A DNA stretch of 55,124 bases, the filler included, from Sluysia triapertura (taxonomy: Eukaryota), in assembly GCA_046118255.1 (NCBI GenBank). It is 4 parts of 4 records of this genome, joined end to end, with 100 filler letters (N's around TTAATTAATTAA, not from the genome) between each part and the next. Parts side by side here need not be neighbours in the genome. Positions count along the whole stretch, not along the records: positions 39,747 to 55,124 come from JBJNIA010229789.1; 3 more parts are not named here. The stretch is one strand, 5' to 3'. Position 1 is the first letter of the stretch. The number at the start of each line of letters is the position of its first letter. Positions 818 through 51,690 of the stretch are shown here, in pieces. A model generated the notes under the pieces. The model made no database searches and was not told the DNA's origin. It saw only the letters and a list, made by a program, of their open reading frames with translations. The position numbers and the translations under genes are program-made.

Positions 818-1456
818 AAAGTGAAACAATTACAATTAATAATTAATCAAGCAGCAAGGCTAATTGTACAAGTTGGAAGATCTCATATAACATCTTATCT
901 TAAAGAATTACACTGGTTGCCAATAAAAGCAAGAATATAATTTAAAATCATGACAATAATTTACAAATACTTACATTACGGAAGTCCTGAATATCTTTTA
1001 GAAATAATGCGAAAATTGGAAACCAAAATTAATATTTCATTGAGACATAATAATTATCTATACAGAATCCACAGTGATAACAAGCTATGTGATAGGTTGT
1101 ATACTGTTTATGTCTCAAAAATATACAACCAGTTACCAGAGAATGTCAAATTGATGGAAGATTATGAAATATTTAAGAAAAAAGCAAAGTTCTTTCTGTT
1201 TCAGAAATATTATATTGTTATTGCTTTTTCGTGGTTAATTTAATTATTTCTTAATAACAATAGTACTTTTATTATATTCACAATATTACTTCACTTATAT
1301 GATTATTACTTCTTGTTGGTTAATTTAGTTATTTTATAATAACAAATGTAGTTTGTTTTATATTATTTTGTCCTATTAATTATTTTAAATGATGAATGCT
1401 TTATTGATGATAATTTATAATTTATAATTTATAATTTATAATTTATAATTTATAAT
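818..1456 (+). mobile_element. 5'-truncated non-LTR retrotransposon (L2/CR1 group): ORF2 C-terminus, 3' UTR and (TTTATAA)n tail
   Basis: In-frame translation KVKQLQLIINQAARLIVQVGRSHITSYLKELHWLPIKARI*FKIMTIIYKYLHYGSPEYL...VSKIYNQLPENVK...FKKKAKFFLF matches the L2/Crack ORF2 tail pattern QN.AAR...HIT..L..LHWLP...RI.FK...WN.LP...FK. One stop at 938-940. The element ends in a 7-bp tandem repeat at ~1411-1456. Confidence 0.85.
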
Positions 1457-1478: not shown

Positions 1479-2758
1479 TGTAAAGGTGTAAAAATTTTAG
1501 TTTTATTTTTTATGTTTTATGTGTTTACAAAAAAATTGAAAAAATTATAAATATTATAAAAAAATTATTAAAATTATTATCATTTAAAAAATTATTATAT
1601 TGAAATTAAAATTATTACTAAATTACTTTAAAAAATAACTCGAAAGAAATTTGTTTAACTACATTAAAGGCATACATAAATAAAGAAATCTCAAAAAATT
1701 ATAATTCGCCATTTTGTGTCACAAAGAAGACAAAGTTATCACAAAAAACCATCATCGATATTATCCGGTGCATCACCATCAATTCATTAGTAGATTTCGT
1801 GTTCTAGTAATTCTCCCATTCATCCTTCAAGTTATTGTGTAAATCCCGCACACTCGATTAGAGGGATAACACTTTCCAAGCATCAGCAGCTCAACCCGTC
1901 AAGTCAAATTCGAACAATATTTCTGGAAGCCAATTAACGATTTTATTAATTAAACTAGTAAGTTAGTTACACATAGTTTGAATACTCATTTATTGAGTTA
2001 AAATCTGCACGTGAAATATTAAGTTTCACGGTTGGTCCTTAAGGCCAATCACAAAATCAATTTAAAATATAAAATCTCTTATCTTTAGTTGGCCCTTAAG
2101 GTCAATTATAAAATAATTATTATAAGATAGAGTCTCTCGGCTAGACCTTTATTATAGTTTAATTTTTATTGTTATTATAAATTTACTATTTATAAAATTT
2201 TTGTTTTTAGTGTTGATCAGTGTTTTTGGAACTTTTACAAACTAACAATATTTTTATTTTATTTTTCTTGCATTGAATAATAAAACTTAAATTGTGTTAA
2301 ATATTTGTTTATTGTAATCTTGATATCAAATTTGTACCATAAGTAAATCCTTATTTTCTGTATACTGTAGATAAACTTTTGAATTAAATAAACTGTTACA
2401 AAGCGTACTCTAATTATAATATAAGCTCACTAATGTTTTAGAAAGTCTAACGATTAGTATAATTAGATTTTTTAAAAGAGTGAAGAATAAAAGAATAATA
2501 CATTATTATACAAATATTGTTAACTTTATTTTTCACACAAACTTAATTATCACACACGCCAGCGTTGGTCGTAATTATTTTTTAAGTCATTTAGTAACAG
2601 ACAATTTTGTCCATTATTGTTAAGTTAAGGCAAAGAGTATTTTTATACGATTTATTCTTAATAATTGTTTTCACGTAATTTTTACAGGTACGCCATTAGT
2701 AAGTCGTATAATTTATTTGCTGTAAGTTAGGTTTTTGAATTAAGAAAAACACCCAGCA
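1479..2758 (+). mobile_element. 5' LTR (~1.28 kb) of a Ty3/gypsy-type element
   Basis: Begins TGTAAAGGTGT and ends ACACCCAGCA. Colinear with the second copy at 45397-46715 (shared ggcccttaaggtcaattataaaa, agtctctcggctagacc, cgccagcgttggtcgtaattattttttaagtcatttag). Immediately followed by a PBS and gag. Confidence 0.85.
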
Positions 2759-2761
2759 AAA

Positions 2762-2780
2762 TAAGCGCCCGAATTGGAAC
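2762..2780 (+). promoter_or_regulatory. Degenerate primer-binding site (tRNA-Lys-like)
   Basis: taagcgcccgaattggaac just after the LTR end. Resembles the tRNA-Lys PBS TGGCGCCCGAACAGGGAC and the better-preserved copy at 30181. Confidence 0.65.
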
Positions 2781-2982
2781 TAAAGTGAAGCATTTATTGA
2801 TATTTCAGTTTATTAGTATTAAGTAAGGAAGTAAGTAGATATAAGTAAGTATTAAAGAGTAATTTAAGTTATAAGAAACATTTCTAGACATAGACGATTC
2901 AGAAATAGATATTAAAGAAGATTATAGTGATAATATTAGCATTCCATTACAAGATATAAATGTTGTATTAGAAGATATCAAA

Positions 2983-3890
2983 ATGGCCGTACCAATGAAC
3001 GAATTTAAGGAATACATAACACAGTTTGCACAAAATATAAAACCTGCTGTAGTATTACCAGAAATGCGTAAGTTTAATGGAGCTGAAGAGGATTTGTATG
3101 ATTTTTTGTTTGAGTACGACGGCATAGAAGAAGCTAATGGCTGGTCGGAATTGGAGAAAATTAAAAGAATTCAAAATTTTCTTACGGATGTTGCTATTCA
3201 GACATACAAAGAGATAGACAATACTAAGAAAACTAATTGGAGCAATTTTGTTAACTCTTTCACGGAAGAAATCTCTTTGGATGACATGTGCAAATATTAT
3301 ACACGAATGTTGAATATACAAAAACAAAAACCTCTCGAAACTGTATGCGAATACGCTTGTGGGTCAAATGTTTAGTGGCACGAGCTAAGATTTCGGATGA
3401 TAAGAAGGAAATGACTCTAATAGATAAGTTTAAGAGCAGACTTCGTCAGGAGTTAAGCACTTACTTTAATTTAATAGATGATTATTAATTTAAGGAGATA
3501 GTCAGAATATTAAGAGGAACAGAGAGATCTAAAATTGAAGCAAAAAAACAACGTAAGTTATGTAAGTAATGATGATAAGAGAGGTAGGAGTCCAGTATAT
3601 AATTTAAAAGATACGTTTAAGAATAACTCTTTTTCAAATAATAATAATAATCATCATCATAATAACAATACTAATAATTTTAAAGGTAATGATTATAGGA
3701 GAAATAGTTTTAACTCACGATGAAATTATTTTAATCAAAGAAGAGGAAGAGCAAGAGGATTTACAAGAAATTATAATGAAACAAGAGAATTTGAACAAAG
3801 ACCTCCGAGGTGACAGAATAATGAAGAATTTACAAATAGGAATAAGAGCCCAGTAAGAGGTAATAATTATAATAAAACTAAAGTTAACGT
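2983..3890 (+). pseudogene. gag: Ty3/gypsy-type gag (capsid) pseudogene with an N/R-rich C-terminal region
   Basis: F.G.EEDLYDFLFEY...ANGWSELEKI..IQNFLTDVAIQTY......W..F...F...L..QKQKPLETVCEYA is the retrotransposon capsid pattern. It continues after a frameshift (~3365) as VKCLVARAKI...LIDKFKSRLRQEL, with several stops. Confidence 0.8.
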
Positions 3891-4079
3891 ATAAGGGGAG
3901 ATAGTAAGTCTAATTCTAATAGGAAAGGACACTACGCATGAAACTATAGTAAATTAAAATCAGATACTTTTAACCAAGATTTAAGTAGAATGCAAAATTA
4001 TCAACTAGTGAGAGGACAAACTCCATCAAGAAAGGTAAAATTTAATAAGAAAAAAAATTAAAATGGTAGGACCCAAGTA

Positions 4080-5590
4080 AATTATAACTACGAATTAAGG
4101 AAATGGACATGATAGAAGTTGGGGTAGATTGACAGAAGATGAAACAAAAATACTACAAGAATACTGTATGATCAAACTGGATAACGATGAAGAGAAATAA
4201 AACTGATTAAAGAAAGAACAAGAAGATGAAGACGAAACATTCGCGAACTACTTATATGAACAACTTTTAGAATTCTTAAAGAAAAAAGAAGAAATGAAGA
4301 ATAGCATACTCACAGAGAAGATAAATTTAAAAGAGAAGAAATCAAGAAATCGGACGAAATTTTGGATGGTTGGGATAAAAATAAAAATGATACCTCTCAA
4401 GTAATGATTTATGATGAATTTAAAATTACAAGTGATACCCATCGAGTACCGATAAATGGCGAATAAAAAAATGAAGAAATAAAAATACCTGAAGAGGAAA
4501 TAATGGCAAATAGAAAAACCGAAATAATTATAATTTGAGTTAATGAGGAAAAAGAGTTAAATAATTCTAAATTAACTTTACGTGCGAAAGCGCAAAAATT
4601 TCTTAAGGATTTACAAAATGGCGCTGTGCAAGCACATGATATTGATGAAAATGTGGATAATTTACTCGCTTAATAAAATAAGTCTTGGATTGATGGATAA
4701 AGTATTAAGTCTAATTTAGTTATATTAAGCCAAGAAAATAGTTATTATAAAGCAAAAGCTATGATATTGTTAAGAAAAGTTAGTCAAATTGAAATGGTCG
4801 AAGAACCCATTTCATTACTGAAAATAAATGTATTAATTAATGATTTGATTAATGTTTTTATGGAATTACCCGTGACTACAAGAGTAAAAGGAATTATTGA
4901 TATAATTAAATCGAATGATATTTCGATAACAGACATAAAGTTATATTATTATGATATAAAATTAGAACCAGATGAGTTCTTGAATGATTACGGTTATCCG
5001 TTAGGAAACTACGGTGAAATAATAAAAGCTTTTATCGCTTACGCGGTAGAAAATAAACCTGTTGATATTACAAATATATATGATGATGTTAAATTAGTTG
5101 AAACAGTTATTGGAAAATGATGATGTACTCATAAATAATACAGAAATTAATGATGAAAATATAATGGAGAAACCCGATTAATAATTGATTTAAATAGTAA
5201 CCCTCACATTGAAACTAATGACAAGGACAACCACGAAAAAATGAGTATAATGAGAATAAGACGATTATATCGCACCCCGTACATAAGAATAATGTTGAAT
5301 TGACTAAAATAAATTGTGAGGATATAGACAATATTGACACTTTGGATACTAAGAATATAATTTATGCATTATTGTCAGATAAATTTGCAGACTTTGATAA
5401 ATATAAAAAATTACTTCTAAAAATGAAAGGATACAGATTATCCCCAATAGAATTAGTGAAACAAATAGAAAATAAATAAGGATAAAGATTTTAGTGATTA
5501 TATTGATGCTGGACACTAGACTAATTAAAGATAAACAGGTTAATTCAGGTATAAATGATAAAAAGGTTAAAATAACTTTAGCATATGTTA
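4080..5590 (+). pseudogene. Decayed internal ORF of the LTR element containing a ubiquitin-like domain (open segment 4761-5120)
   Basis: DIKLYYYDIKLEPDEFLNDYGY aligns without gaps to ubiquitin [22 protein letters not shown]. The whole segment is homologous to 48040-49490. Confidence 0.6.
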
Positions 5591-5599
5591 TGGGAGTTG

Positions 5600-6180
5600 A
5601 TGTTGTTGAGGCGAGTGTTGAATAGTATTTTGAAAGAAGTTTTAAAACTGAATTTCTAAACTTAATATTTATCTTATCGCTGTTAATAACGTTATTTAAA
5701 AATAATATTAGATTGTTTAATTCTTCAGATAACTTCTTTAATAAATCCAAACTGTAGACTTTAAAATCTTTGATTCTCAACATAACAGTAAAATCGTTAA
5801 CAATTTTTACACTATCAATAGCTCGTAAAAGCAAAGAAAATTCTTTATCCTTTTGTTCCGTTTCAATTATCATCATATAATGATTAAAATGCATAAAACG
5901 CCAATTAAGACATGCGTTGAAAACAATATTAATCTTACATCGATATTAATGCATTTTGTAGTAAAATCCTTGTTCATTTTAACATTTAAGTGAAAAGCAA
6001 AATTGAATTTCAATTTTCTATCTGCACTTCTAATCCTTTTTTGTCTGAAAAAAATTATTTGTCTGTATTTTCAACTGTCTATTCTACACTCTTTTTTAGT
6101 CTAACCAATTATTACGTTATAATTTCAAATTCTGTCTACCCAATCAGAATATTTTGAAAACATTGATGATTATTTGCACT
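5600..6180 (-). pseudogene. Possible decayed ORF of unknown identity
   Basis: Open frame 5894 to ~5600 (IETEQKDKEFSLLLRAIDSVKIVNDFTVMLRIKDFKV...) with protein-like but stop-interrupted sequence upstream. The part of the track ORF below 5600 is simply antisense to the LTR-internal ORF. Confidence 0.25.
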
Positions 6181-8645: not shown

Positions 8646-9788
8646 CTAAATTGTATTTTCATCATTAGAATCATCGATTTGGTCATTTGAATTTTCTTCA
8701 CTATTTTCAGTAGTTTCAGAAACATCATTGACATTGTAATAATTAAAATTATTAATATAGAAATTTTGAATGAAGATATTGTTTATATTCACATGTTGAT
8801 TACTATTAATGTACATATTATTATACAATGTGTAATCAAAATTAGGATGATTGTTCGAATTATAAGTATTATAATTGTATTCATTATTAATATAATTTGG
8901 AATATAAATAGCATTATTTGATACTGAATTATATTGTTGATTTGAATTATTATCTTCAAATTCATTATTATAATTATTATTCGTTATATTGGACTCCATA
9001 TTACTGTTTGTGTATTCAAATAATCCATGATGATTTGATTCTAGTGTTTGTAGCATTTCATTATTTAGCATTGCTTCAGTATCACCTTGATTTGTAATGT
9101 TTTCAAATGCATTATTACGAAAATTGTTATAATGAATTTCATTATGATCTATATAATTATTCATTACTGGATTAAATTGTTGATTAGAATTATTATCTTC
9201 AAATTCATTATTGTAAATATTATTCGTTATATTGGACTCCATATTACTGTTTGTGTACTCAAATAATGCATTGTAATTTGATTCTGTTGTTTGTGACATC
9301 TCATTATTTAATATTGCCTCAGTATCATTTTGATTTGCTGTGTTCTCAAACGCATCTAATTCAGTATTTGGTTGATTTAAATTATACATATTAGTATCTA
9401 AAGTTTCAACAGAATCATTATTCGAATTAGTATTGTTTTCTATTTCGTTCAACACTTCATGCATGTCTATAAATAAATCATCGATGTTTTCAACGTTATC
9501 ATCGACATTAATATTGTCATCCTCTATTCTGGATATTGTTACAAAAGACATACTATCTTCGTCACTATTCCTCTGCGCTCCATTGTCATCTAAATTAAAT
9601 TCATAAATTTGTTCTTCCTTAAAATACAATGTGAATTTCCTTGAATAATTCCGACAATTTGGACATGTATTATGATTGGTTATATAAACCCATCTCCATA
9701 AACACTCGAAACAGAATCTGTGTTGGCACTCAGTAATACCACTTTTTATAGAAACTTCACTGAAACAGATTGAACAAATATCAGTCAT
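8646..9788 (-). CDS. C3HC4 RING-finger protein (putative E3 ligase) with an acidic, Asn-rich tail, 380 aa, intronless
   Basis: N-terminal CSIC-x12-CQH-x2-C-x2-C-(W)-CPNCR is a complete RING-HC signature. The 1143-bp ORF is uninterrupted in very AT-rich DNA. Confidence 0.9.
   Translation of the reverse strand: MTDICSICFSEVSIKSGITECQHRFCFECLWRWVYITNHNTCPNCRNYSRKFTLYFKEEQIYEFNLDDNGAQRNSDEDSMSFVTISRIEDDNINVDDNVENIDDLFIDMHEVLNEIENNTNSNNDSVETLDTNMYNLNQPNTELDAFENTANQNDTEAILNNEMSQTTESNYNALFEYTNSNMESNITNNIYNNEFEDNNSNQQFNPVMNNYIDHNEIHYNNFRNNAFENITNQGDTEAMLNNEMLQTLESNHHGLFEYTNSNMESNITNNNYNNEFEDNNSNQQYNSVSNNAIYIPNYINNEYNYNTYNSNNHPNFDYTLYNNMYINSNQHVNINNIFIQNFYINNFNYYNVNDVSETTENSEENSNDQIDDSNDENTI
8928..9355 (-). 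repeat. In-frame internal duplication with 243-bp (81-aa) period within the RING gene
   Basis: ggactccatattactgtttgtgta at 8991 and 9234. The peptide AFEN..NQ.DTEA.LNNEM.QT.ESN...LFEYTNSNMESNITNN.YNNEFEDNNSNQQ occurs twice. Confidence 0.9.
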
Positions 9789-11039
9789 GATTGATTAAAA
9801 TAATTATTTTTTAACAAAATAATTAAAAGCATTTTAAAATAAATTTTATACAATGTTGTAACAAATGTAATTATTATTTAATATGAATAAATAAATCATT
9901 TTAAAGGCTTTGTTAAGTTTGATTATTAATAAATTTTACATTGAATAATTTTTTTAATTAGTAGTTCATTTTTAACCAAAGATATATTCTTGGAACGCCA
10001 GAAATTTAATGTCACATATCTCAACTAACGTAACATAATGAAAACCTATTTCGCAACATAAAAATAAAAAAATACAAACTTCATTAATACTTAATAGTGA
10101 TTGACGAAAAATATGTTGAAATATTAAATTTAAAACCTTTAAATAAAATATGCAAATATATTTAATTTTTATTAAGTATTGAACTAGTGAATAAAATGTC
10201 ACTGTGTGAGTTCTAAAATAGTGTAACAGTTTCATTTTTAAAACAATAAATAATAATAGAAATAATACGATAATTGCCGGAACAAAATAACAAATTAAAA
10301 TGATACACCATTAAATTTAAAAAAAATTAAAACCTAAAACATATTTCAACAAAAAATAAATTTCTAATATCATTTAGGTTACGTGACATGCTGAAAATTG
10401 ATTTTGAGAATAATCCAGTTAAAGTCTATTTAGGTAAATTGAATTTTTTGAAAAAAAGTGATGGTCATTTGCTTTTTCCTTTTTTGTAAATTCCTTCCGT
10501 CAATTCAAGCCAAATCCAGCAGCAACTATCAACTTCAGAATTACAAATCTCTAATATTAATAAATCACTAACAGGAATGACACAAGTTAAATGAAATCAA
10601 TAAATTTTGACGCCCATATTAACACAAAAAGTAAATAACAAAAAACTAATCCCTTTATTTAAAAACCCCCTAATGAATTTTAATTGTCTGCTGAAGAATA
10701 GCCTCAATTTCATTATTTTCTACAAATGAATTGAGGAAGCGTTCTATAGTTAAATAAGTCTGTTTTTTATCTATCTTATTTTTGTTCTCTTTTTCTGAAA
10801 AAATATGACTGCTTATGCAATAGTTTAGCGATCATTTGGGAAATTAGACTATAGGGAAATTAAACTGTTTATTCTTTTTAGTCGGTGATAAGCCAAACAA
10901 TTTTAGTGATTCAATTTCGAAAATAATTTTCGCCTGTATCCAATTTCATTACCTTTAATTTGTGTGAAACATTACCTTAATCATTATATTAAAATTTAAT
11001 ATTATTATGTCGCTAATATTAATAATATTAATATTATTA

Positions 11040-18684: not shown

Positions 18685-20590
18685 TTAAAAACAACCTTCT
18701 AATCGGTCAACCGAATTTAATTCTTCTTCAATATCACTTATTTCCTCTGGCATTTCAATGAATAAATTGTTCATTGTAGTAAAGCGATAATCCGGTCGTA
18801 TTAGCAATACTCCATGTCGTTGAGGTGCCCTGTTGAGCATGAACTGTAGAGCTGGGTCAAACTGAATCATGTCCAATTCGGCATCAAATTCTGTATTCAC
18901 TCTAAACAAAAACCGCACTGATGCTTCTTATTAATGTTATTGAAATTATTGAAATGTTATTGAAAATAAGTATTTTATATATACTTTTACAACTTCAAAT
19001 TGCAAAATAATACATAATGACAAAGTATAAATTGAATATTCTGTTATTACAAATTGTACACAACATAATATTAAGAAACAACTTTGAGCATTACATAATA
19101 ACATTGGAGATCCCAGACAATACATTAGGAGTAAAAATATCTACTGCATATCGATGGATAAATGAACAAGAAACTGAAAAATAACATGGAAAGATATGAG
19201 TTAGAATTTTTGATAATTCTTAATTCTTTTGTAACTGTTGAGTTCATTACTTATTCAGAGAACACAGTCAGAAAAGAAATCGAGGGATAAATAGTAATCC
19301 GAGCATATATACTATTAAAAACTTTAGTAAAAGATTCATCATTATACAGTAATTTCATGCATAATTTTATATAATACTCAAACTTAATTCATCAAAATTA
19401 TTACTTGCAAAATGAACAAAAGTCGATATTCCACACAGCATAGAATGCTAAAAAACTCGACAGATCGTGAGGTTGTAGATGTAAACATTTGGCAAATCTA
19501 AACGCAGTCGAAATTGGCATATTCGAATAAGCACAGTCCTTGCTAATTACCAGAAATGGAGGCTTCTGTCGAATCAAGAATTCTCGAAACACTGAATGGT
19601 ACGTGTCATTAACAGCCGTAGCACATCTGTCTCTACCAATCATCGCTTGATCATAAACTCTTTTTGTTGAACACTGATATCGGACAGCAAGATCAAAGAC
19701 GACATTCGAATCTTCGAAATACTATTAATACAATTTAAATATTTTATATTAACATAGATAATACTAATAATTGTTCTGAGTGTGTTCCATTTTTTGAGAA
19801 ATTTTATTTAAAATTAAAATTAAATTTAATTACAAAATGAATTATTGTCTTACATCAAAAAATTAATTAATATTCGATGTCAGTTCTACTTTCATATCAA
19901 ACAAAAATCATTTAAATATTTTGAACTTGGAATGAATTTAATAGAACAATGAATAAAAATACTAACATGAATTTGCTCCGGATTGTCAGGTATTATATCT
20001 AAATAATTATCACCCATACAAATACCCCATTTGTCTAAAATAACTTTCGCTGGTAACTGAATGCCTTTGTTAAACATTTTAACTTGTTCGAATTTACAAA
20101 AAGCTTTTTGTTTATTCAAAAAAACTCTGAACGCAATTGGTGGCCAACCAACCATTTGGATTGGACTGCACTTGATTCTGCAAAACAAAACCACAACTAT
20201 TTCGTCCATACTTCTCATTTGATGTAGAGATTCTTCTGAAGTAATTATAAAGGTGAGTCTAATTCCACTGTTATCTGAAAGAATGGAATGTCTAAGCTCC
20301 AATCTACCATTTCGAATCGGCATACACACCTCGGCTGGTAACACTAAATATAAATTGTCAGTGTGAAGATAAAGACATTCATTGGATTTAGATGAAAAAA
20401 GGACAAAATTTTAAATTTAGATATTTATCATACGAATATATGTAAATCTAACTTTCTACTGGTAATTCTTTCAATATAAAGTACATTTCTGCAAACGTTA
20501 TAGTTTTGGATTTTTCGCGAAAATATTCGTATTTCTAAGTAAATTAAGTACGTCCTTATAAAACAAAGTTACATTTAATAGTTCATCCAT
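18685..20590 (-). CDS. Divergent SP-RING (zf-MIZ) protein, ZMIZ/PIAS family SUMO E3 ligase-like, ~336 aa
   Basis: Five exons in phase: 20590-20573, 20534-20453, 20343-19967, 19721-19405, 18901-18685, all GT-AG. Contains ZMIZ/PINIT-like MPIRNG..., GWPP..FRVFLN and G.N.L.I, then VISKDCAYSNMPISTAFRFAKCLHLQPHDLSSFL...FCSFC (cf. VSLKCPI...I..P.R...C.H.QCFD..S.L.......W.CPVC) and an acidic tail. Confidence 0.8.
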
Positions 20591-39746: not shown

Positions 39747-41640
39747 AAGCTCTTGGAAATCAAATCAATAACAACACAACAATTTACTGGTTAAATAAAA
39801 ATCAATTACAAATTAGTATTATTGTAAATCTCTATTAAGCAGTACTAAAAATGATTAAAATGATGAGATTAACAATAACGTTTATAATAGACTCAATTAC
39901 ATAACAATCTATCAAAAGAAACCACAGGTGACGCAAGACTAAGAAAAATATTAACTATTATTCACAATTATCAAATATGATTTTTCAACACACACAAAAA
40001 CGAAAAACTATTTTAATAAAAATCCTCCAAAAAGTAATATTATTTTTAATTTTAAAATAAATTCAAAAATTACTTAAAGCAGGGATCTTCTCATTTTCAT
40101 TACTAATTGTTATTATTGTTGTGTTGTAGTTGTTGTGTTGTGCTATAAAATTTTTAAGTTTTCCTTTTTATATTTTCTCATCATCCAATAATTTCCAAAT
40201 TTTGTGATTAAACATTTTCTCACATATATCATTGCAACATTCTTTGTGAATTAATCCGACAATACAGACAGTGAAACTTTATTAGATACAGAACACTAAA
40301 GATTGATTTACGAATACCTATTATTTTCCTTTGCTCTACTCAATCTACTTTTACTTAAATTAATTCTCACATTAAAAGAAGAATCATTATTATTGTTAAC
40401 ATACATAAAAAATAATGAATTTAATTTCAGTTTTCAGAATTTAATCGATTTCTGGTTTTTCCACACTCAATTTTCTAATGAAAAATGTTTTAAGATTCTT
40501 ATTCTCAAACAAACCATTCTACAAACATTTTGAACTCACTTATAGATTCTCCTCTTTCATATCAATCTTCTCATATTCAATTCATTATATTTGCATCATT
40601 CTAAGTGTAAAAATTCAACGTTACATAATTAAGAATTAATTAAAATTTGACTTTGCTCAATATTAAGGCTTTCCTTGCATGAACTCAGTCAAGCCATACT
40701 TTCATCGAAATGTCTTTTCAAAACAAATGCATACACAGTTTCAGATTCAACATAGCATGCCTCATTCAAAAGTTATTCACAAAACCTATTTTTTCTTAAT
40801 TAAGTTAATTAAGATTTTAATTAATTAATCTATTTTTAGACTTAATCTTATTCTATTATTGAGGTTCTAAAGTTATTTCGTAGTTTATAAGGCATTCAGG
40901 GGACTCCAGATGTTTTCACCTTCACCTCTCTGATTCCCTTTTCTACTTATTCATGTTAATTATCACTATACTAGATCTATTCTTAATACAAATAACAAAG
41001 ATTTTATTTCTCAACTATTTTAAAGATTTAAACACTATAAGGTTAAGGATCTCAAATGCTCATCGATGTTCCAAGATACTTAAAGGTTGCTAAGGTCTTA
41101 AATGATCTAAAGGCTCACTAGTTCAAAGGTACCTAATGCTTCTAAAGGTTTTTCAAGTCCATCGCAAGCTTCTATAAGGTCTCAAAACCTTGTATAGTGT
41201 GGTGGTCAACATATAACTTTTAACAAAATTAATTTTTTTCTGACATAACAAAATCACTCTTCACAATATTTTACAACGCTTAATACCATCAAACATGTCA
41301 AACATAAAATTTCATATCATTTTAAATCTCATATTTTATCTCCTTTACTCCCAATAGAACCTTGTTACAGATTTCATACTGTATAACATTAAAATTACAT
41401 GCACGTTCAGATCATTAACGCACATTAAATTGTATTTAAAATATTTCAACCCATAATTCACAATATCAGAATTACAATTCCACTTAAAAACCATCAATCT
41501 AAAATTTTAAGTTAATTCAGAACATTTTAATCCAGGATTTCAACATTCAATCACACTTTCACTCAAAACATTTTAAAACCATATTTTATCACATTTCACA
41601 ATAACATCCACACTATTAGGCTAAAGAAATAATGTCAAGA
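39747..41640 (+). repeat. Longest uninterrupted R1 repeat copy (~1.9 kb)
   Basis: Contains all blocks shared with the other copies: aggtgacgcaa, tcatcatcca, ctctactcaatcta, cattctacaaacattttgaactcact, ttgctcaatattaaggcttt, ttcaccttcacct..ctgattcc, gtggtcaacatataac. Confidence 0.8.
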
Positions 41641-42314
41641 AAATAGTTAAATTAAAAAGAAAGCTCGTGTATTAAGGTAAAAGCAAAAAGGAATTTATGT
41701 TTTATTTAGTTTTGATTATATTTATTATCATCTTTATTTATTATAATTATTATCGGAATTGTCACCATTATTATTATTATTATTCTTTATTATTATTCTT
41801 CATTATAATCAATCACAATCATATTTACTCGGTAACGAGATTTAATGTAATTACCTGCCGTCTGTAGACAGCTTAATTAGAATAATTTAATGTATTTTGC
41901 TCACTGCCTACCGATGGCATACACTCACTTAATCACCTTACTTATTTCATAATTAGTTTGATACCAACTGACCATTAGACGTCTCTTAATACAAATGATG
42001 AACAATTTACAAAACTTACACGTCTCTTTGTCAATTTAAAATCTACAAATTTGTTCGTGTGTAGGTTTAAGGCTACGCTTTCTTTCTGTGTTTGTCTATT
42101 GTGTGTATAATCATTTTCATGTTTTTGTCTATACATAAAGTAGTATTCGTATGTTTAACGTAGTCACCATTTATTTATTAAAACTTAAGCTTAGAATAAC
42201 AAAAACATATAAAATAAAAGTATTCTTAAAATTGAAAATTTAAAAACGTTAAAAAATTAATCATTAAAGTGAAAATTTTATATTGATCATAAAAGCATAT
42301 GCAATTCTTCTACA

Positions 42315-43370
42315 ATGATTACAACTGTGGCTAAATTACCAGCAATATTAGATTACATTTCAAAGTTAAAATATTCAAAACCGGCTCAAGTTCGACAACA
42401 TGATATGCCATTATTACCATAATGTAAAGATGAGATTAGTTTATCTAAAACCGGCAGTAAAAAGATTGTTCCGTACGGTATTCCATTCATTCAGCGATGT
42501 GTAGTCCACGATCATCGATTAATATATGTAAGGATTTTGATTCCTACAGTTGAATTAGCAATACGAAAGTACTTTCAGCTAATAAGAATGAGCAAAGGAT
42601 TAAATCTGAGTTTAATGCGTTCATCTAGTGATATAAATATGATCGATCAACTAACGGAACTTAGTATTTTAGATACCTACATTGTAGTAGCGATTCCGTG
42701 TCGAATTTTGATGATGTTCTATCATACGATTCAAATTAAAGAAATATTTATCCTATACATGTGATAATTATGGAGGCAGATAAAATGATGCGTTATGAAT
42801 TAGATGAAGAGACAGAAAGAGTTTTATGCATATTACCATCAAAAATATGTAATAAAAGAAAACAGATGTTCAAACAAATACAAATTCACTCAGCGACATG
42901 TTATGGAGAAGTTGAAAAGAAATTTAGGATTTCGTGTTATGATTTGAAACATTATTTTTGGACGATGACGAACCATACTAAAAATAAAGTTAATTTAAGA
43001 ATAATATTCGAAGCATTGACACATTACATTGATGAAACATCTGTGTTTAAAGTTTTAGTCTTTGCTAATGATGTTTCTGATACACAAGTTATGTTTACTA
43101 ACGATTTTTTCAGTAAAGTTATTAAAATTATAGTTTTAGTCGCCAAACCACAATGTTATAAAAATTATGGATTCTTATTACTACAAAGCTAAACGATTTG
43201 CAAGCGATATTAGACTAGTTTTTGTGCCTGCTTTTGTAATTTATGAAATCGAAAAGTCTCAATCAAGTCCGGACAATTCTGCATCCCAAGATGGCTATAT
43301 TAATCAATTTAAAACACGTCAGACGATTGCGAAACCCTACAATCTGAGGAGCCGACATCCAATGACATAA
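42315..43370 (+). pseudogene. Intronless, degenerate DEAD-box RNA helicase-like pseudogene
   Basis: Motifs in the correct order and spacing: Q-like LKYSKPAQVRQHDMPLL, I SKTGSKK..YGIPFIQ, Ia ILIPTVELA, Ib IVVAIPCRIL, II IIMEADKMM, III HSAT, IV KVLVFAN. Stop at 42420-42422 and frameshifts at ~42745 and ~43170. Confidence 0.8.
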
Positions 43371-44272
43371 AAGTAAATTTAGCTTATTATTATTTAACTG
43401 TGGAATTAATTTTATATGTTTATTTATTTAGTAACATTAGGTCAACAAATCTGTGGCATATTCGAAAAATCTTTAACATCACTTTTGAAAATTTTAGTCT
43501 TGGTATTTTTAATAAAAATAGATTATTATATAGTTTATAGTTTTTTTATAAGGAATCTAAATTATATTATGTAATTAAAGCTATAACAAAGTGTAATCGT
43601 TATCTTAACTTTTAATTTTAATAAACTAAAAGAAAAATGTATAATATACATTTACTATTTGAAGTCAATCATTTTTTGTAATATGATCAACTATCTAAAA
43701 ACATCACACATCAATTTCTATCAGTTCTTCCTTGATTTTATAGTTCCATATGTTTCTACTCATCTCCTGATCTACAGTTTGGCAATTCCAACAGTTGTGC
43801 GATTGTGTTGTGAAATTTTTAAGTTATTCATTTTATATACTTTCATCATCCAACCAATCCTGAGTCTCACAATCTTAAACTCTCTCACACAAATCATTAA
43901 AACTTCTTTGAGAATTAAACCGACAATAATAACTTTGACAATTACATGGTACGGTCTGTCAAACTTCATTGAGTACAAAACATAGAAACATGATTTATTA
44001 TCAACCATCACTTTCTTTTACTCTACTCAATCTATTTTTACTTCTCACATTAAAATAACAAGCAACAATATTATTAACATACATAAAAATAATGAATTTA
44101 ATTTCACTTTTTAGAATTTAACTGATTTTCAATTTTTCACACCAAATTTTCTAATGAAAAATGTTTAAGGTTCTCAAACATGCCATTCTACAAACATTTT
44201 GAACTCACTTTTAGATTCTCCTCTCTCATGGCAATCATCTGATTTTCCATTCATTATATTTGCATCATTCTA

Positions 44273-45299
44273 TGTGAAAGAGTTTTATTATAAATTAAAC
44301 TTACAAAATAGGTTGGTTGTTAAGTCCACTTAATAAGCACAATTTATATCAGCCTGGAAGACGTGTTATAGGGTTTACAATAAGTTTCAAAAATAAAAGT
44401 TATTTTCATTAAGGGCTAAATTAGTTGTTTATGTAGCTCAAATTAAAAGTTATTTTAATATGGGTTAAAGTAGTCGTTTTACGATCTAGTATATAAAATC
44501 AATTTAAACTACCCTTTAAGATCTACATTACAAAAACAGAAAATTAAGTTACCTTTAAGGTCTAACGCTTCAATGGATAAATTTTATATTTGAACTAGCC
44601 TTCAAGTTCTGGTGTTCATGTACTGAAAGTTATTAATAAAATCACCAAATTTAATATCAAAGATAAGTATAAAATGATACATTGTATAATCATTGTTTAA
44701 GACACAAAAACTGTAATAAAGATAATATTTTATCAATATTTAAGAAGCACAATACAACTTTTTAATATTCCTTTGTTTTTAATAAATTAAATTAATAAAA
44801 TAAATTAAGTTAGACATTAAAAACTAGCATTAAAATTCTAAAAGTTTTAAGTCTGATTTTAGCTCTTACTTTTTACGATAAGAACATATACTTATAAATA
44901 ATCAAAATTACTACTGCATGGAATTGATAAAAATCTTCAGTTAAATCTTTCATTAATGATGGTTAAATTAAATTATGGTCAAAATATGGTGGCCTTAATG
45001 AAAATTCTGCAATCTATTTAAATCATTTTCACTATGGAAGCCATTTTAAATTATTTGTTTAATTTAAACAAAAATCATTTTAAAATTTTTTTTCATTTTT
45101 AATATTAAATTTTAAACTATTTAATATTTATTTTAATTTTAATTTTAACTATTTAGTATTTGAAATTTAATCTTAAATTTAATGCTATTTAAATATTTTC
45201 ATAGTTTTATTTCGAAAACAATTATAATATTTATAGTATTTAAAAGTAATAATTACATAAAAATAATTTAAATTTACAATTTAAAACTACAAGTCAACG
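44273..45299 (-). mobile_element. Solo LTR (second family), inverted
   Basis: Discrete ~1-kb insertion relative to the intact R1 copy. Its minus-strand end (gt.cttatta.g.g.ac...tattttgtaag...aactctttcaCA) matches 51276-51336. Confidence 0.65.
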
Positions 45300-45396
45300 T
45301 AAATATAAAAATTCAACATTCCATAATTAAGAATTAATTAAAATCTGGCTTTGCTCAATATTAAGGCTTTCTTTGCTTGACTTGGTCAAACCATAC

Positions 45397-46715
45397 TGTA
45401 AAGGTGTACAAAATATTTTTATATTTTATTTATTATTATTTAAAAAATTATTGTAAAAATGTACGAAATATTTTTATATTTTATTATTAAATTAAATTAT
45501 TATTTAAAAAATTATTATTCAAATTATATTAAAATTAAAATTATTACTCAATTACTCTAAAAAATAATACAAAAAGAAGCTTCCAGAAGTGATTTGTTTA
45601 ATTGAAGTAAATTTTAAAAAATGTCTTTATGTGCATATAAAGACAGACATGAATAAAGAAGCCATTAGTAAACATAATACGCCATTTTGCATTACAAAGC
45701 AAACAAAGTTTATAATCACAACAAATCATCATCAACATTTCCATGTCTATTACAATTAATTCATCAGCGTGTTACTTGTTCCAACAATTTTCCAATTCGT
45801 CTTTCAAGTTATCGTGTAAATCCCGCATGTTCGATTAGAGGGTTAACAATTTCCAAGCATCAGCGGCACAAGATATCAAATCCACTTAGAAAAATATTTC
45901 TGGAAACTGATCTACGATTTTATTAATTAAATCAGTAAGTTTGTTGCATATATTGTGAATACTCATTTTTTTGAGTTAAAATCTACACTCAAAATACAAA
46001 TTTTACGGTTGGTCACAAAATTAATTTAAAATATAAATTATTCTTTAGTTGGCCCTTAAGGTCAATTATAAAATCATTATTATAAGGTAGAGTCTCTCGG
46101 CTAGACCGTTATTATAACTTAATTTTTATCATTATTACAGTTTTATTATTTATAAACTGTTGTTATTGTTAATAATTGCTTTTTTTAATTTTTATAAATT
46201 AGCAGTATTTTTATTCGAATTTTCTTTTTGTTATATAATAAAACTTGGATTTTGTTAAATATTAGTTTCTTATAATTTTAATATTGAAATTAATAACATA
46301 ATTTTAACTCGCTTCCGCGAACGATTTTTAAATTCAATAAGCTATTATAAATCGTATTCTGATTATAGTATAAGCTTGCTAATTTCTTAGAACGCTTCAA
46401 AAAATCTAATGATTAGTAAAATAAGACTTTAAAGAGTAATAAGATAAAAGAGTAATATATTTTTAATTTTATTTCTTACATAAACTCAAATACTACATAC
46501 GCCAGCGTTGGTCGTAATTATTTTTTAAGTCATTTAGCAGAAGACGTTTTTGCCCATTATTGTTAAATTAAGGCAAAGAGTATATTTTATACTATTAATC
46601 TTAATAATTGTTTTCACGTAAATTTACAGGCACGCCATTAGTATTCGTATACTGTAAACGAACTTAGAATAATAAATTATTTCGTTAGGTTTTTGTATTA
46701 AGAAAAACACCAGTA
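45397..46715 (+). mobile_element. Solo LTR, same family as 1479-2758
   Basis: TGTAAAGGTGTA...AGAAAAACACCAGTA, colinear throughout with 1479-2758, with no PBS after it. Inserted at ccatac|ttcatc of R1 (empty site at ~40694-40706). Confidence 0.88.
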
Positions 46716-47080
46716 AACCTTCATCAAAAGATCTTTTTAAAACGAATACATAGACATTTCAAATTTCACCTAGCATTTCACATTCAAAAGTTATTCACAA
46801 AAACATACTTTTTCTTAATTTAGTTAATTAAGATTTTAATTAATTAATCTATTTTTGGACTTAATCTTATTTTATGTTTAAAGGTTTTTATTAAGGTTTT
46901 TAAGGCATTCAGTAGGCTCTAGATGCTTTCACCTTCACCTCCCTGATTCCTTTTTTACTTCTTTATGTTAATTATTTTATTTCTAAAATATTTTAAAGAT
47001 TTTCTATAACATTTTAAAGGTTATTCGAAGATCTTAGATGATTATTATGGTTTTAATAGGTCTTAAAAGATTTAAAGAAT

Positions 47081-48017
47081 TGCTGTGGTTTTTCTAATAC
47101 TTAACCTACGGCAAAATATTTTTTAGCAGGGTTCGGTTACAGTAAGCGACTTACAACGTATCGTTGGCACTCCTGTAACTAATAAGTTTAAGATCACTTA
47201 AAAATAATGTCTCTACTAAATTAATTAACTTAGGAGGTTCTTCAACTACTAAATAAACTCAATAATTTACTAATTAATTAACACGAAAAATCAAATTATT
47301 TTATTAGAAAAATGTACAAAAACGTTATTAAATTCAAAGATAATAGATTATAAAAATAAAACTGAACAAATATTATTAAAGATTAAAGCTCCGAGAGCGT
47401 TTAATCTAATACTGATAAAAAAAGTTGATTTTTCTCCCTCAATATGCCGGGACTTATAAAACTTTATAAATTAATAGATAATTTAAGTGCATTTTAAGAC
47501 TTTAACTTCAAAAGTTAAAATCCAACCTAACAAATATATAAATTACCAGATTCAAAAATTGATTTTCAAATTCCAAAATCTTCACGATTAATTCGAAGGC
47601 ATTAAAATCCAAGAAAGTATTGTAAATGGCGACTGATAGAGAACAAATATGGCGACTGATAGAGAACAAATATGGCGACTATTAAATGATGGTTGATTAA
47701 TACAAAATGGCAATTTTCATTGTATGATGCTAGTTTATATATTAGTCATCATCCAATGAAAATCGATGGAATGTTCTAAAATATTCTAGAACATTCTAGG
47801 AGCTTCTAATCTATTTTTAGAAGCTTATTTTCTATTTTCGAAATTTTATTTTCTTTTTTGGAAAATAATTGTATTTTGAGTAATTTTACAAATTAATAAT
47901 TGATTGTAAAATATTTTATATGCTTTTAATTAATTTTTTGATAATTCTAAATATTTTAAATTAATTTTATGCTGTTATTTTATCATTTTAAAATCATTTT
48001 AGAGGGTTGTGATGACA
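47081..48017 (-). mobile_element. Related LTR in inverted orientation (distal boundary uncertain)
   Basis: The minus-strand end cagg..gcca...gtaagtcg...tactgtaa.cgaac...agaaaaaccacagca matches the 3' ends of LTRs 1479-2758 and 45397-46715. Contains a 23-bp tandem repeat at 47626-47680. Confidence 0.6.
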
Positions 48018-48039
48018 ACTTAACAGTAATAAGACTAAT

Positions 48040-49560
48040 GAAGTACAGATAAATTATAACGGACAACAAAACGATAGGGAACGAGAGAAATACATCGAAT
48101 ACGACGAAGATTACAGAGATAGCCGATGTGAAACAAGGATAACTAGATTAAGAAAAAGTCATACAAGATTCTCGTAAAATGAAATTGGATTGCTCTGATG
48201 GTAGTGAAAGAAAAGTTAGATCAAAAATAAACTAAGAAGCGCGTGATGAATCGTTTATTTATATGAACATATATTTAGAAAGAGAAGAAAAAATGACGGA
48301 AAGAAGACTAAACTAACATAAAAATTGAGATAGATGAACAAAAGCTAAAAGATAAACAGGAAAATATATAAAAAAATTGACAAAATGGGGTATCATCATA
48401 GTAATGCCAGAAAACGATGAACAAGAAGAATTACATTTATTCGATGAGCTAGAAATAATGGCAAAAATGAAAAAAAAATAGCAAATTAAATACTCCGGAA
48501 CCAGCATTATTGGAAAAAGTAAAAGTATTTATTTCAGATTTAAATAACGGTATAGCTGAATAAAGTAAAAAAATCTCGATGAAAACATAGTTGACTTACT
48601 TGGAATGAATAGAAATATGCATAATGGACAGTGCATCAAACCAAACTTAGTGATATTAATTCGAGAAGACAGTTCATATAAAACGAAAGCAAAAAATATA
48701 CTAAGAAAAATTGCTCAAATGGAACGAACACCTGAACCAAGAGCTTGACGCAAATTAAAATATTAGTTAATGGATTAATAAATTTTTTATGCAGTTACAT
48801 TATGTAGTTACCTTAGTTGGAGAAATTACTGATATGATTAAATCTAATGAGTCGATATAAAATTAAATTTTCATGATATGATTTTTTAGACGACTATGGC
48901 TGTACCTTGGGAAAACATCAGGAGATCTAAAAGCTCAAGTATTTTAAGCGATTACAGATGAAACCCAAGATGACATTGACAATATAAATTTAAATAACAT
49001 TCAATGTTCCTTTTTGAAACAATTATTGGAACATAATATGGATATTAATGAGAACATAATCGAAAATATGAGTGATAAAATTAATAAGAAAAATCATAAA
49101 TTAGATAATGTAAGCATACCGCATTATATAATTGATTTTAACGGTAACCTTCACGTAGAAACTACTGATAGTGGAAAGAATACAATAAGAAGAAGACCAG
49201 ATTGTCCGAGAAAAATGAAGTTACAATGCCAAACCCCGTCCATGACAAAATTACATTGAATTTATGCATAATTTATGCATTTTTATCAGATAAATTTACA
49301 AATTTTCTGAAATGTAAAAACCTACTATAAAATGTCTGTGATTGAAGTAATGAAACAAATGGAAGAAAAATATTTGAATAAAGATGTTGGCGATAACATA
49401 GATACTGGACAGTATACGTCATAATAAATAAACAAATCACCACAGGATTAAATGTTGAAAAACTCAATATTATATTAACATATATCATATTTCATTGAGA
49501 TAAATCAAAACTTTTAACTACTGAAAAGATTGATAAATTTATAGGAATTTTAGAGAAAAA
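48040..49560 (+). pseudogene. Second decayed copy of the LTR-internal ORF with ubiquitin-like domain
   Basis: KAKNILRKIAQME..PEP / QIKILVNGLIN.FMQL...VGEITDMIKSNE / DIKL.FHD / FLDDYG.TLG parallels 4750-5010. ataatttatgcatt.tt.tcagataaattt is shared at 5357 and 49268. Confidence 0.75.
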
Positions 49561-49711
49561 ATTGAGTCTATGAATTCACATTCAAGGAGAATTGAGAAAC
49601 ATAATAAAAGAGAAAACGAATCCAAATTCTGATGAACCGCTTAATATGTTTTAAAACATAAATTTATTAATAAATAACCAATTTACCGAAAATGAACAAT
49701 CTAATGAATAA

Positions 49712-50052
49712 TATGGTTTTGTAATAATACTATTGGCTACGTTTGGAATAACTAAATCAAATTGTATAAAAGTCAACCTCATATTGGTAAAAGATTCTGT
49801 TTATTAGATACAGAGGATTGTCCGGAATCAAGGCCAAACAGAATTCAAATTAAGGAAACAAAAAAATTTTAATGTTTACCATGAAGGAAATTTAGTTATT
49901 ACTTTGGCAGAGAATGTTCGGCTAAAAGAACTGTAGCTATTTGGTACTGATAACATCACAGTCATTCCTCAATAATAGAATTATCAAATGTATTTAAACC
50001 ATTCAAAATACAACCGAACAACTGCCGAATTGCTTTAAAACTTGATATATAA
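49712..50052 (+). pseudogene. env: N-terminal fragment of an envelope glycoprotein, chuvirus/Monjiviricetes class III-like
   Basis: Across frameshifts: hydrophobic leader YGFVIILLATFGITKSNC, then KRFCLLDTEDCPE, then FGRECSAKRTVAIWY**HHSHSSII...FKIQPNNCRIALK. This parallels the recalled family pattern YDC...SLLDV..C...C.....T..YCG.HSH.S......I....C. Confidence 0.55.
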
Positions 50053-50063
50053 CTTTAAACTAT

Positions 50064-51336: not shown

Positions 51337-51690
51337 ATAAAATTCTTGCAGACTTAATTTTACTTCATATTTAAAGGTTTTAGTATGGTTATAAAGTTGA
51401 TAGATACGTCATAAGGCACTAGATGTTTCACCTTCAACACTCTGATTCCTTTTTCAACTTTTTTATGTTGAATATATCGAATTTATCTTTAATATTATTA
51501 ACCATGATTTCAGTCTTGAACATTTTAAAGATTTCAAATATTTTACACTGCTACTCGAAGATCTCAAAGGTTTATTAAAATCTTGAAGGTCTCAAAGGAT
51601 CCCAAAACTTAGAAGCTCATGGTCTCTTCATACTTCGAAGCACCTTTCCAAGCCCTTCTCAAGCCTTCATAAGGGTCTTAATACCCTACA
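51337..51690 (+). repeat. R1 repeat fragment
   Basis: agacttaat...ctagatgtttcaccttcaacactctgattcc...ttccaagccc..caagcctt aligns to ~40838-41190. Confidence 0.7.

Follow-up and report, generated by a model that had tools for sequence, protein, structure and literature searches.

Identification of a truncated env gene

Positions 49712-50043 of the window (the whole stretch of 55,124 nucleotides analysed here) encode the N-terminal remnant of a chuvirus-like class III fusion glycoprotein (env), comprising ~120 of the ~650 residues of such a protein and interrupted by frameshifts and a double stop. Very probably, this is a dead 5' fragment of an env gene from a giant Ty3/gypsy retrotransposon of the Burro/GYPSM1 type, in a host that is itself probably a planarian. 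The coordinates of the env remnant and of the associated element fragments are collected in Table 1.

Table 1. Retroelement-related features of the window
Feature	Positions	Strand	Evidence and remarks
LTR-like end and primer-binding-site-like stretch, copy 1	1479..2780	+	TG...CA, 1479-2758; primer-site-like stretch, 2762-2780
Gypsy-type gag piece, copy 1	2875..3372	+	phmmer with the gag of L002, iE 4e-4 versus 6 for the reversed control
Internal region, copy 1	4137..5591	+	Homologous to 48145-49488; blastn, 61-65% identity, E 1e-61 and 1e-9
Solo LTR, same family as 1479-2758	45397..46716	+	Sits inside an unrelated repeat (45300-46975)
Whole internal element fragment	48000..50043 (left end approximate)	+	Other repeats at both borders; no gag, pol or LTR attached
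Decayed helical and UBL-like region	48635..48947	+	Homologous to the open frame 4701-5117 (tblastx/blastn); weak as UBL
Decayed Bcl-2-like region	49418..49610	+	Adjoins the env leader upstream, in the same frame, with stops; weak
Signal-peptide-like leader of env	49712..49765	+	Translation; tblastn ties it to the leader of P0004
N-terminal PF24664 / HSV-gB-type class III env piece	49771..50043	+	Pfam, alignment with P0003, profile of relatives
Switch of frame and return in env homology (two compensating frameshifts)	~49841..49927	+	Profile match in the other frame, P 0.006, weak
Two adjacent stop codons on conserved family columns	49948..49953	+	Translation and alignment with relatives

The main frame of the fragment (49753-50058, translated with X at the stops and denoted P0001) carries both CLLDTEDC and RECSAKRTVAIWY-XX-HHSHSSII...IQPNNCRIALK, so that the peptide motifs listed in the preliminary description of this DNA are borne out by translation, with a single frame containing both blocks. 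Among 24,736 Pfam families, the sole match of P0001 is PF24664 (Monjiviricetes_fusion), at E 0.012 and 14.1 bits, below the cut-off of 27, and spanning profile positions 37-115 of 653. The score falls under the gathering cut-off because only 80 of the 653 profile positions are present, and it is nevertheless meaningful because PF24664 had been predicted in advance: glycoprotein profiles of the Monjiviricetes were the comparison that the preliminary description had proposed, and this family is what the search returned. In the alignment with the full-length env of a relative (P0003), P0001 runs gap-free over 90 amino acids, with 36% identity and a pairwise E of 1e-18, and the two stops occupy the columns of a Cys-Gly pair shared by all 7 relatives, exactly where the earlier reading had placed them. 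The 17 columns that are invariant in the seven relatives over the 90-aa range comprise 10 that are kept in the window copy, 2 that are the stops, 4 in the frameshifted stretch and 1 that is substituted. Identity drops over ~49841-49927 in this gap-free main-frame alignment, the same stretch in which the homology appears to move into another frame and back. The score of a profile built from 10 relatives is 64 bits at 49771-50043, whereas the rest of the window does not exceed -2.6 bits and none of 10 shuffled windows exceeds -0.1 bits. This test is partly circular because the members of the profile were found with P0001 as the query. The description of the fragment as a remnant of a chuvirus-like class III env is thus supported by the Pfam match, the alignment with P0003 and the predicted fold of this relative.

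One detail of the earlier reading needs correction. The first "C" of the proposed motif (49763-49765) lies in the frame of the leader, near the signal cleavage region, and is not the first conserved Cys of the family, which the main frame of the window copy lacks; the C of "CLLD" occupies the position of a Ser in the relatives.

The hydrophobic leader, YGFVIILLATFGI, begins at 49712 in a frame different from that of P0001 but shared with the upstream Bcl-2-like stretch, with a frameshift after the leader. It is located where a signal peptide is expected, but such stretches are common in the window: the 11-aa hydropathy of the leader is 2.87, and the six frames contain 177 equally hydrophobic 11-aa windows, so that the leader alone is weak evidence. 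At its other end, the env piece stops abruptly, without an ectodomain core and without a membrane anchor. A search with the profile of relatives revealed no other env pieces in the window and nothing past profile position 120; with the full ectodomain and the C-terminal membrane helix absent by the same search, the window copy is truncated. The sequence search of PDB with the fragment produced only 6 chance matches (best E 0.79).

Relatives of the env fragment and their domain architecture

Searching 1.84 billion protein representatives with P0001 (phmmer, E up to 0.001) yielded 8 matches, with a best E of 1.8e-9 for an env match and with the closest relatives 26-36% identical to the fragment. 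The top match, P0002, is a tandem-repeat protein without PF24664 and was left out of the env count. The remaining 7 of the 8 are PF24664 envs, full-length or in long fragments (67-320 bits), and 5 of these 7 run on, in the same chain, into an aspartic protease and/or RT-RNase H-integrase; one env relative has a Bcl-2 match (E 0.001) just before env, and another is a bare fragment. All seven true relatives are retroelement-type proteins or context-free fragments. No viral name occurs among the eight matches, and the sole name is that of a hypothetical protein of a bacterial MAG. The Pfam matches of the relatives include no Pao-specific family. No match came from prokaryote genome contigs searched with P0004 (0 of 21) or, with the env alignment as the query, from viral contigs (0 of 120 candidate stretches).

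Several features of these proteins were noted in passing. P0004, an env-PR-RT-IN retrotransposon polyprotein, is assigned to a Flavobacteriaceae MAG, where it is annotated as hypothetical, and is likely to come from a mis-binned animal contig. Several relatives, namely P0005, P0008, P0009 and P0010, contain 2-7 tandem aspartic-protease-like domains after env, and one of them, additionally, ankyrin and C2H2 domains.

In a metagenome scan, 2 of 31 candidate stretches (L001 and L002) were confirmed. L002 is a single ORF of 3703 amino acids that encompasses a gag-like start, CCHC knuckles, ubiquitin-like and Bcl-2-like regions, env, PR, RT, RNase H and integrase; one ubiquitin-like domain was detected with E 0.018, whereas a second one and the Bcl-2-like stretch, which was aligned with P0003, were recognized by eye. 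L001, a single ORF of 3426 amino acids, has the layout of L002 from the ubiquitin-like domain (UBL) onward and is open at the contig edge. The env is in frame between gag and pol, or before pol, in L001, L002, P0004 and P0006. Both loci also encode a separate DEDDh-type exonuclease ORF after pol (L001:10617-12104 and L002:12085-13470; RNase_T in Pfam), which goes unmentioned in the Burro section of PMC6431247.

The AlphaFold model of P0003, built from an 11-row alignment, has a mean pLDDT of 56, with values mostly of 70-93 over residues 170-450. When this model was compared with PDB, herpesvirus gB and baculovirus GP64 came out on top (best E 9e-10), and when it was compared with models of viral proteins, the top position was taken by chuvirus-type G (best E 2e-28, 20% identity). 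The identity to gB is 9-12%. The TM-scores are low (0.13-0.32), and therefore the support for a class III fold is at the level of the domain and pertains to P0003, not to the fragment.

Upstream element sequence and a second copy in the window

The fragment that ends in env contains two decayed regions, Bcl-2-like and UBL-like, with weak matches to the domains that the relatives have at these places. In hhalign, the Bcl-2-like region at 49418-49610 can be aligned with that of the relatives over 61 columns (E 0.0037, probability 9%); a score this high was reached by 10 of 1000 shuffles. With the UBL, the number of such shuffles among 1000 was 14 in copy 1, and the two frame pieces of 48635-48947 gave 2 and 247. 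The Bcl-2-like piece of copy 1 gave 58 of 1000, and the ten controls fell between 15 and 159 of 300. In the window, neither domain has a Pfam or PDB match or a signal at the expected places in six-frame profile scans. The AlphaFold model of 4701-5117, obtained from a single sequence, is all helix with a pLDDT of 57 and uninformative on UBL, and word-indexed homolog searches with the UBL frame and with the gag frame gave 0 matches each, a weak form of evidence. Accordingly, we regard the UBL and Bcl-2-like assignments as suggestive only, because the segments were picked by hand and are without support from Pfam, PDB, six-frame scans and the single-sequence model.

Gag and the env-bearing fragment are connected solely through the homology of 4137-5591 to 48145-49488. 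The gag piece belongs to copy 1 (1479-5600, + strand), which consists of an LTR-like end, a primer-site-like stretch, gag, an Asn/Arg-rich linker and an open frame of 139 amino acids that might be a UBL. The gag of copy 1 has no gag match in Pfam, and no CCHC knuckle was noticed in its translation. We take the stretch at 2762-2780 to resemble a primer-binding site; no tRNA genes were found in the window. The likeness of copy 1 to the env-bearing copy ends at 5591, and no env (by the env profile) or pol follows. Across the window, 0 of 4 pol queries had a significant match; therefore, there is no RT-based placement of the element.

Given these results, the family that the preliminary description had characterized by a gypsy-type gag and a UBL can be retained in part: the gypsy type is supported by the relatives, and a UBL does precede env in the relatives but is weak in the window.

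LTRs and neighboring repeats

The preliminary description had placed the env remnant in an LTR element, but no LTR pair flanks it: no second LTR was found downstream of env, and the window contains no paired LTRs around the env piece. The LTRs of this family are ~1.3 kb long. The LTR nearest to the env piece, at 45397-46716, is identical to the LTR of copy 1 in 82% of 1225 aligned columns and is a solo LTR because its two flanks are contiguous at 40602-40963. For the same reason, we rejected this sequence as a 5' LTR of the env piece and, likewise, the interpretation of 1479-46716 as a single 45-kb element. The region 40602-40963 is, in effect, an empty site of the solo LTR insertion elsewhere in the window, with a short and imperfect target duplication. 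The element fragment with env is bordered by very high-copy repeats at 47634-48035 and 51386-51500 (summed depth of 5e4 to 3e5 in sequencing run X1). A 23-bp tandem duplication near 47640-47680 is absent from a related contig.

Other features of the window

Beyond the retroelement fragments, an open frame of 382 amino acids at 8646-9794 (- strand) encodes an N-terminal C3HC4 RING finger (Pfam E 6e-9) followed by an Asn-rich tail that contains an internal 200-bp duplication. Pieces of a MIZ/SP-RING zinc-finger gene are present at 19401-20410 (- strand; Pfam E 1.7e-6); the word-indexed homolog search with the MIZ-finger exon gave 0 matches, which is weak evidence. A degenerate DEAD-box helicase occupies two overlapping frames at 42423-43192 (+ strand; Pfam E 3e-4). 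The frame at 870-1243 (+ strand), without a Pfam match, presumably resembles the C-terminal tail of a LINE reverse transcriptase.

Related copies in sequencing runs

Two sequencing runs, X1 and X2, contain the env-bearing stretch, and X1 may be the source of the window itself. Run X2 was not counted as a second host: its share is small, and its depth profile tracks the high-copy repeats of X1. Contigs of run X1 are identical to the window over 47999-49829 and 49800-49992, at a depth of ~10, and the second of these spans the double stop; therefore, the breaks are present in the assembly of run X1 as well. Env-related sequence is abundant in this run, and most of it lacks the double stop; at three of the six double-stop bases, 82-99.8% of the aligned depth reads another letter.

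The summed contig depth in run X1 is 40,000-46,000 over 49778-50045 versus 17-114 over 48036-49107, where summed depth is not a copy number. Relative to the adjoining UBL/Bcl-2-like stretch, the abundance of the 5' env part among the contigs is higher by a factor of hundreds to thousands. The simplest cause of this contrast is that the upstream domains evolve faster and fall below the 80% likeness threshold. Rather unlikely is an exchange of env between gypsy lineages that would have given a Burro-type class III env to another family, of very high copy number and with a different upstream cargo; the host might then be a flatworm from outside Dugesiidae.

Comparison with known elements and alternative origins

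The closest published parallel is the planarian element Burro/GYPSM1 (Arkhipova and Yushenova 2019, PMC6431247), in which, according to its description, Gag, CCHC, Ubi2/SUMO-like, BCL2, env, PR and RT follow each other in this order; env lies in frame between gag and pol and has matches to mononegavirus fusion glycoproteins. The Burro section of that article reports thousands of copies in Schmidtea mediterranea and decaying fragments with stops and frameshifts in Dugesia japonica. L001 and L002 share the order UBL, BCL2-like region, env and PR, so that the hallmark of Burro is found in the closest relatives of the fragment. The window differs in that it contains only ~2 kb of decayed internal sequence, with no pol and with no MATH, BIR or ankyrin domain seen; its LTRs have the length given above, and the host is probably another species.

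More broadly, GAG-ENV-POL elements with an HSV/gB-type env have been described in Platyhelminthes, Nematoda and Bryozoa (Chary and Hayashi, eLife 2026, PMC13524379), and supplement 1 of this study contains 9 flatworm rows, of which 6 are ENV_HSV elements of S. mediterranea (Smed_errantivirus_1-6), with 1-215 intact copies. The authors argue that this env type was acquired in early metazoan retrotransposons rather than captured recently. The preliminary description had proposed that the env was captured from a negative-strand RNA virus, a direction that is hypothetical. By eye only, the fragment shares 7 of the 8 residues of RECSAKRT with Smed_1 and 8 of the 9 residues of HHSHSSIIE with Smed_6 in the rows of PMC13524379. 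These errantiviruses agree in the type of env, in gene order and in local motifs, but they are intact and selected, whereas the window copy is broken. The host lineage of such an env had been thought to be probably unreported; if the host is a planarian, this claim of novelty fails because the Burro env, described in 2019 (PMC6431247), and the six S. mediterranea elements are already published.

The preliminary comparison with Anakin is also off the mark. Anakin, as described by Dezordi (2020, PMC7642597), is a Pao (BEL/Pao) element of mosquitoes that, similarly, combines a retrotransposon with a chuvirus-like glycoprotein, but the relatives of the window fragment are of the gypsy type, with env between gag and pol. 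To chuvirus G itself, the fragment is linked by the profile match to PF24664 and by the predicted fold of its relative, but the identity of this relative to the best chuvirus G is ~20% and a viral gene context is missing. Nevertheless, PF24664 is a viral glycoprotein family, chuvirus G tops the viral fold search with the relative, and insertions of the chuvirus type are common in arthropods (PMC7642597, PMC10084718), so the fragment might be considered a G gene endogenized directly from a chuvirus or related virus, or an env of the Anakin type, lying by chance beside retroelement debris. We consider this very unlikely: the seven true sequence matches are retroelement-type or context-free and none is named viral, P0003 has a higher identity to the window piece (36%) than to the best chuvirus G (20%), the leader shares its frame with the upstream element sequence, no viral contig matched, and no viral polymerase or nucleoprotein family was found by Pfam among the 17 window peptides scanned; for the Anakin-type variant, the lack of Pao-specific families among the Pfam matches of the relatives is an additional argument. 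Sequence comparison thus supports the assignment of this env to a gypsy-type family rather than to a stray viral insertion.

Within the gypsy group, an origin from another GAG-ENV-POL lineage, or from a host other than a planarian, for example a nematode or a bryozoan, is unlikely. In its favor, the closest relatives are only 26-36% identical, and GAG-ENV-POL elements, present in Nematoda, Bryozoa and Platyhelminthes, are not monophyletic according to PMC13524379. What argues against it is the placement of UBL and Bcl-2-like regions before env, a Burro hallmark that is found in the closest relatives and faintly in the window, together with the motif likeness to the Smed envs. The GC content of the window, 20-28% per 2 kb, points in the same direction, fitting the AT bias of planarians without being specific: the genome of S. 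mediterranea, in which Burro is present, is >70% AT (PMC11410931). As for a chance pattern in AT-rich junk DNA, which could be suspected from the Pfam score below the cut-off and from frames that are read through stops, the probability is negligible. This explanation is refuted by the phmmer result (E 1.8e-9 in the 1.84 billion library), the gap-free 90-aa alignment with P0003 and the shuffled windows, which never scored above -0.1 bits, and the many related contigs in run X1 also speak against it. Overall, the Burro/GYPSM1-type origin, in a probable planarian, best accounts for the fragment; that the element belongs to this family, that its host is a planarian and that env acts in enveloped particles are all inferred.

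Implications for the biology of the element family

In the intact relatives, as seen in L001 and L002, one long frame encodes env downstream of gag and of the ubiquitin-like and Bcl-2-like domains and upstream of protease, RT, RNase H and integrase. With this arrangement, env would enter the secretory pathway by means of an internal signal peptide and be held in the membrane by a helix at its C terminus. From the layout and the fold, enveloped particles of such elements are predicted to fuse with cells in the manner of herpesvirus gB. The window copy was cut after ~120 codons, was parted from its gag and LTRs by other repeats, and accumulated frameshifts and stops. It cannot make a fusion protein because it is cut at ~120 codons, frameshifted and stop-bearing.

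By itself, this is an ordinary decayed copy of a published element type and is of little significance. Its presence adds one more genome to those with a Burro-type env, and in this genome the family is, or formerly was, abundant.
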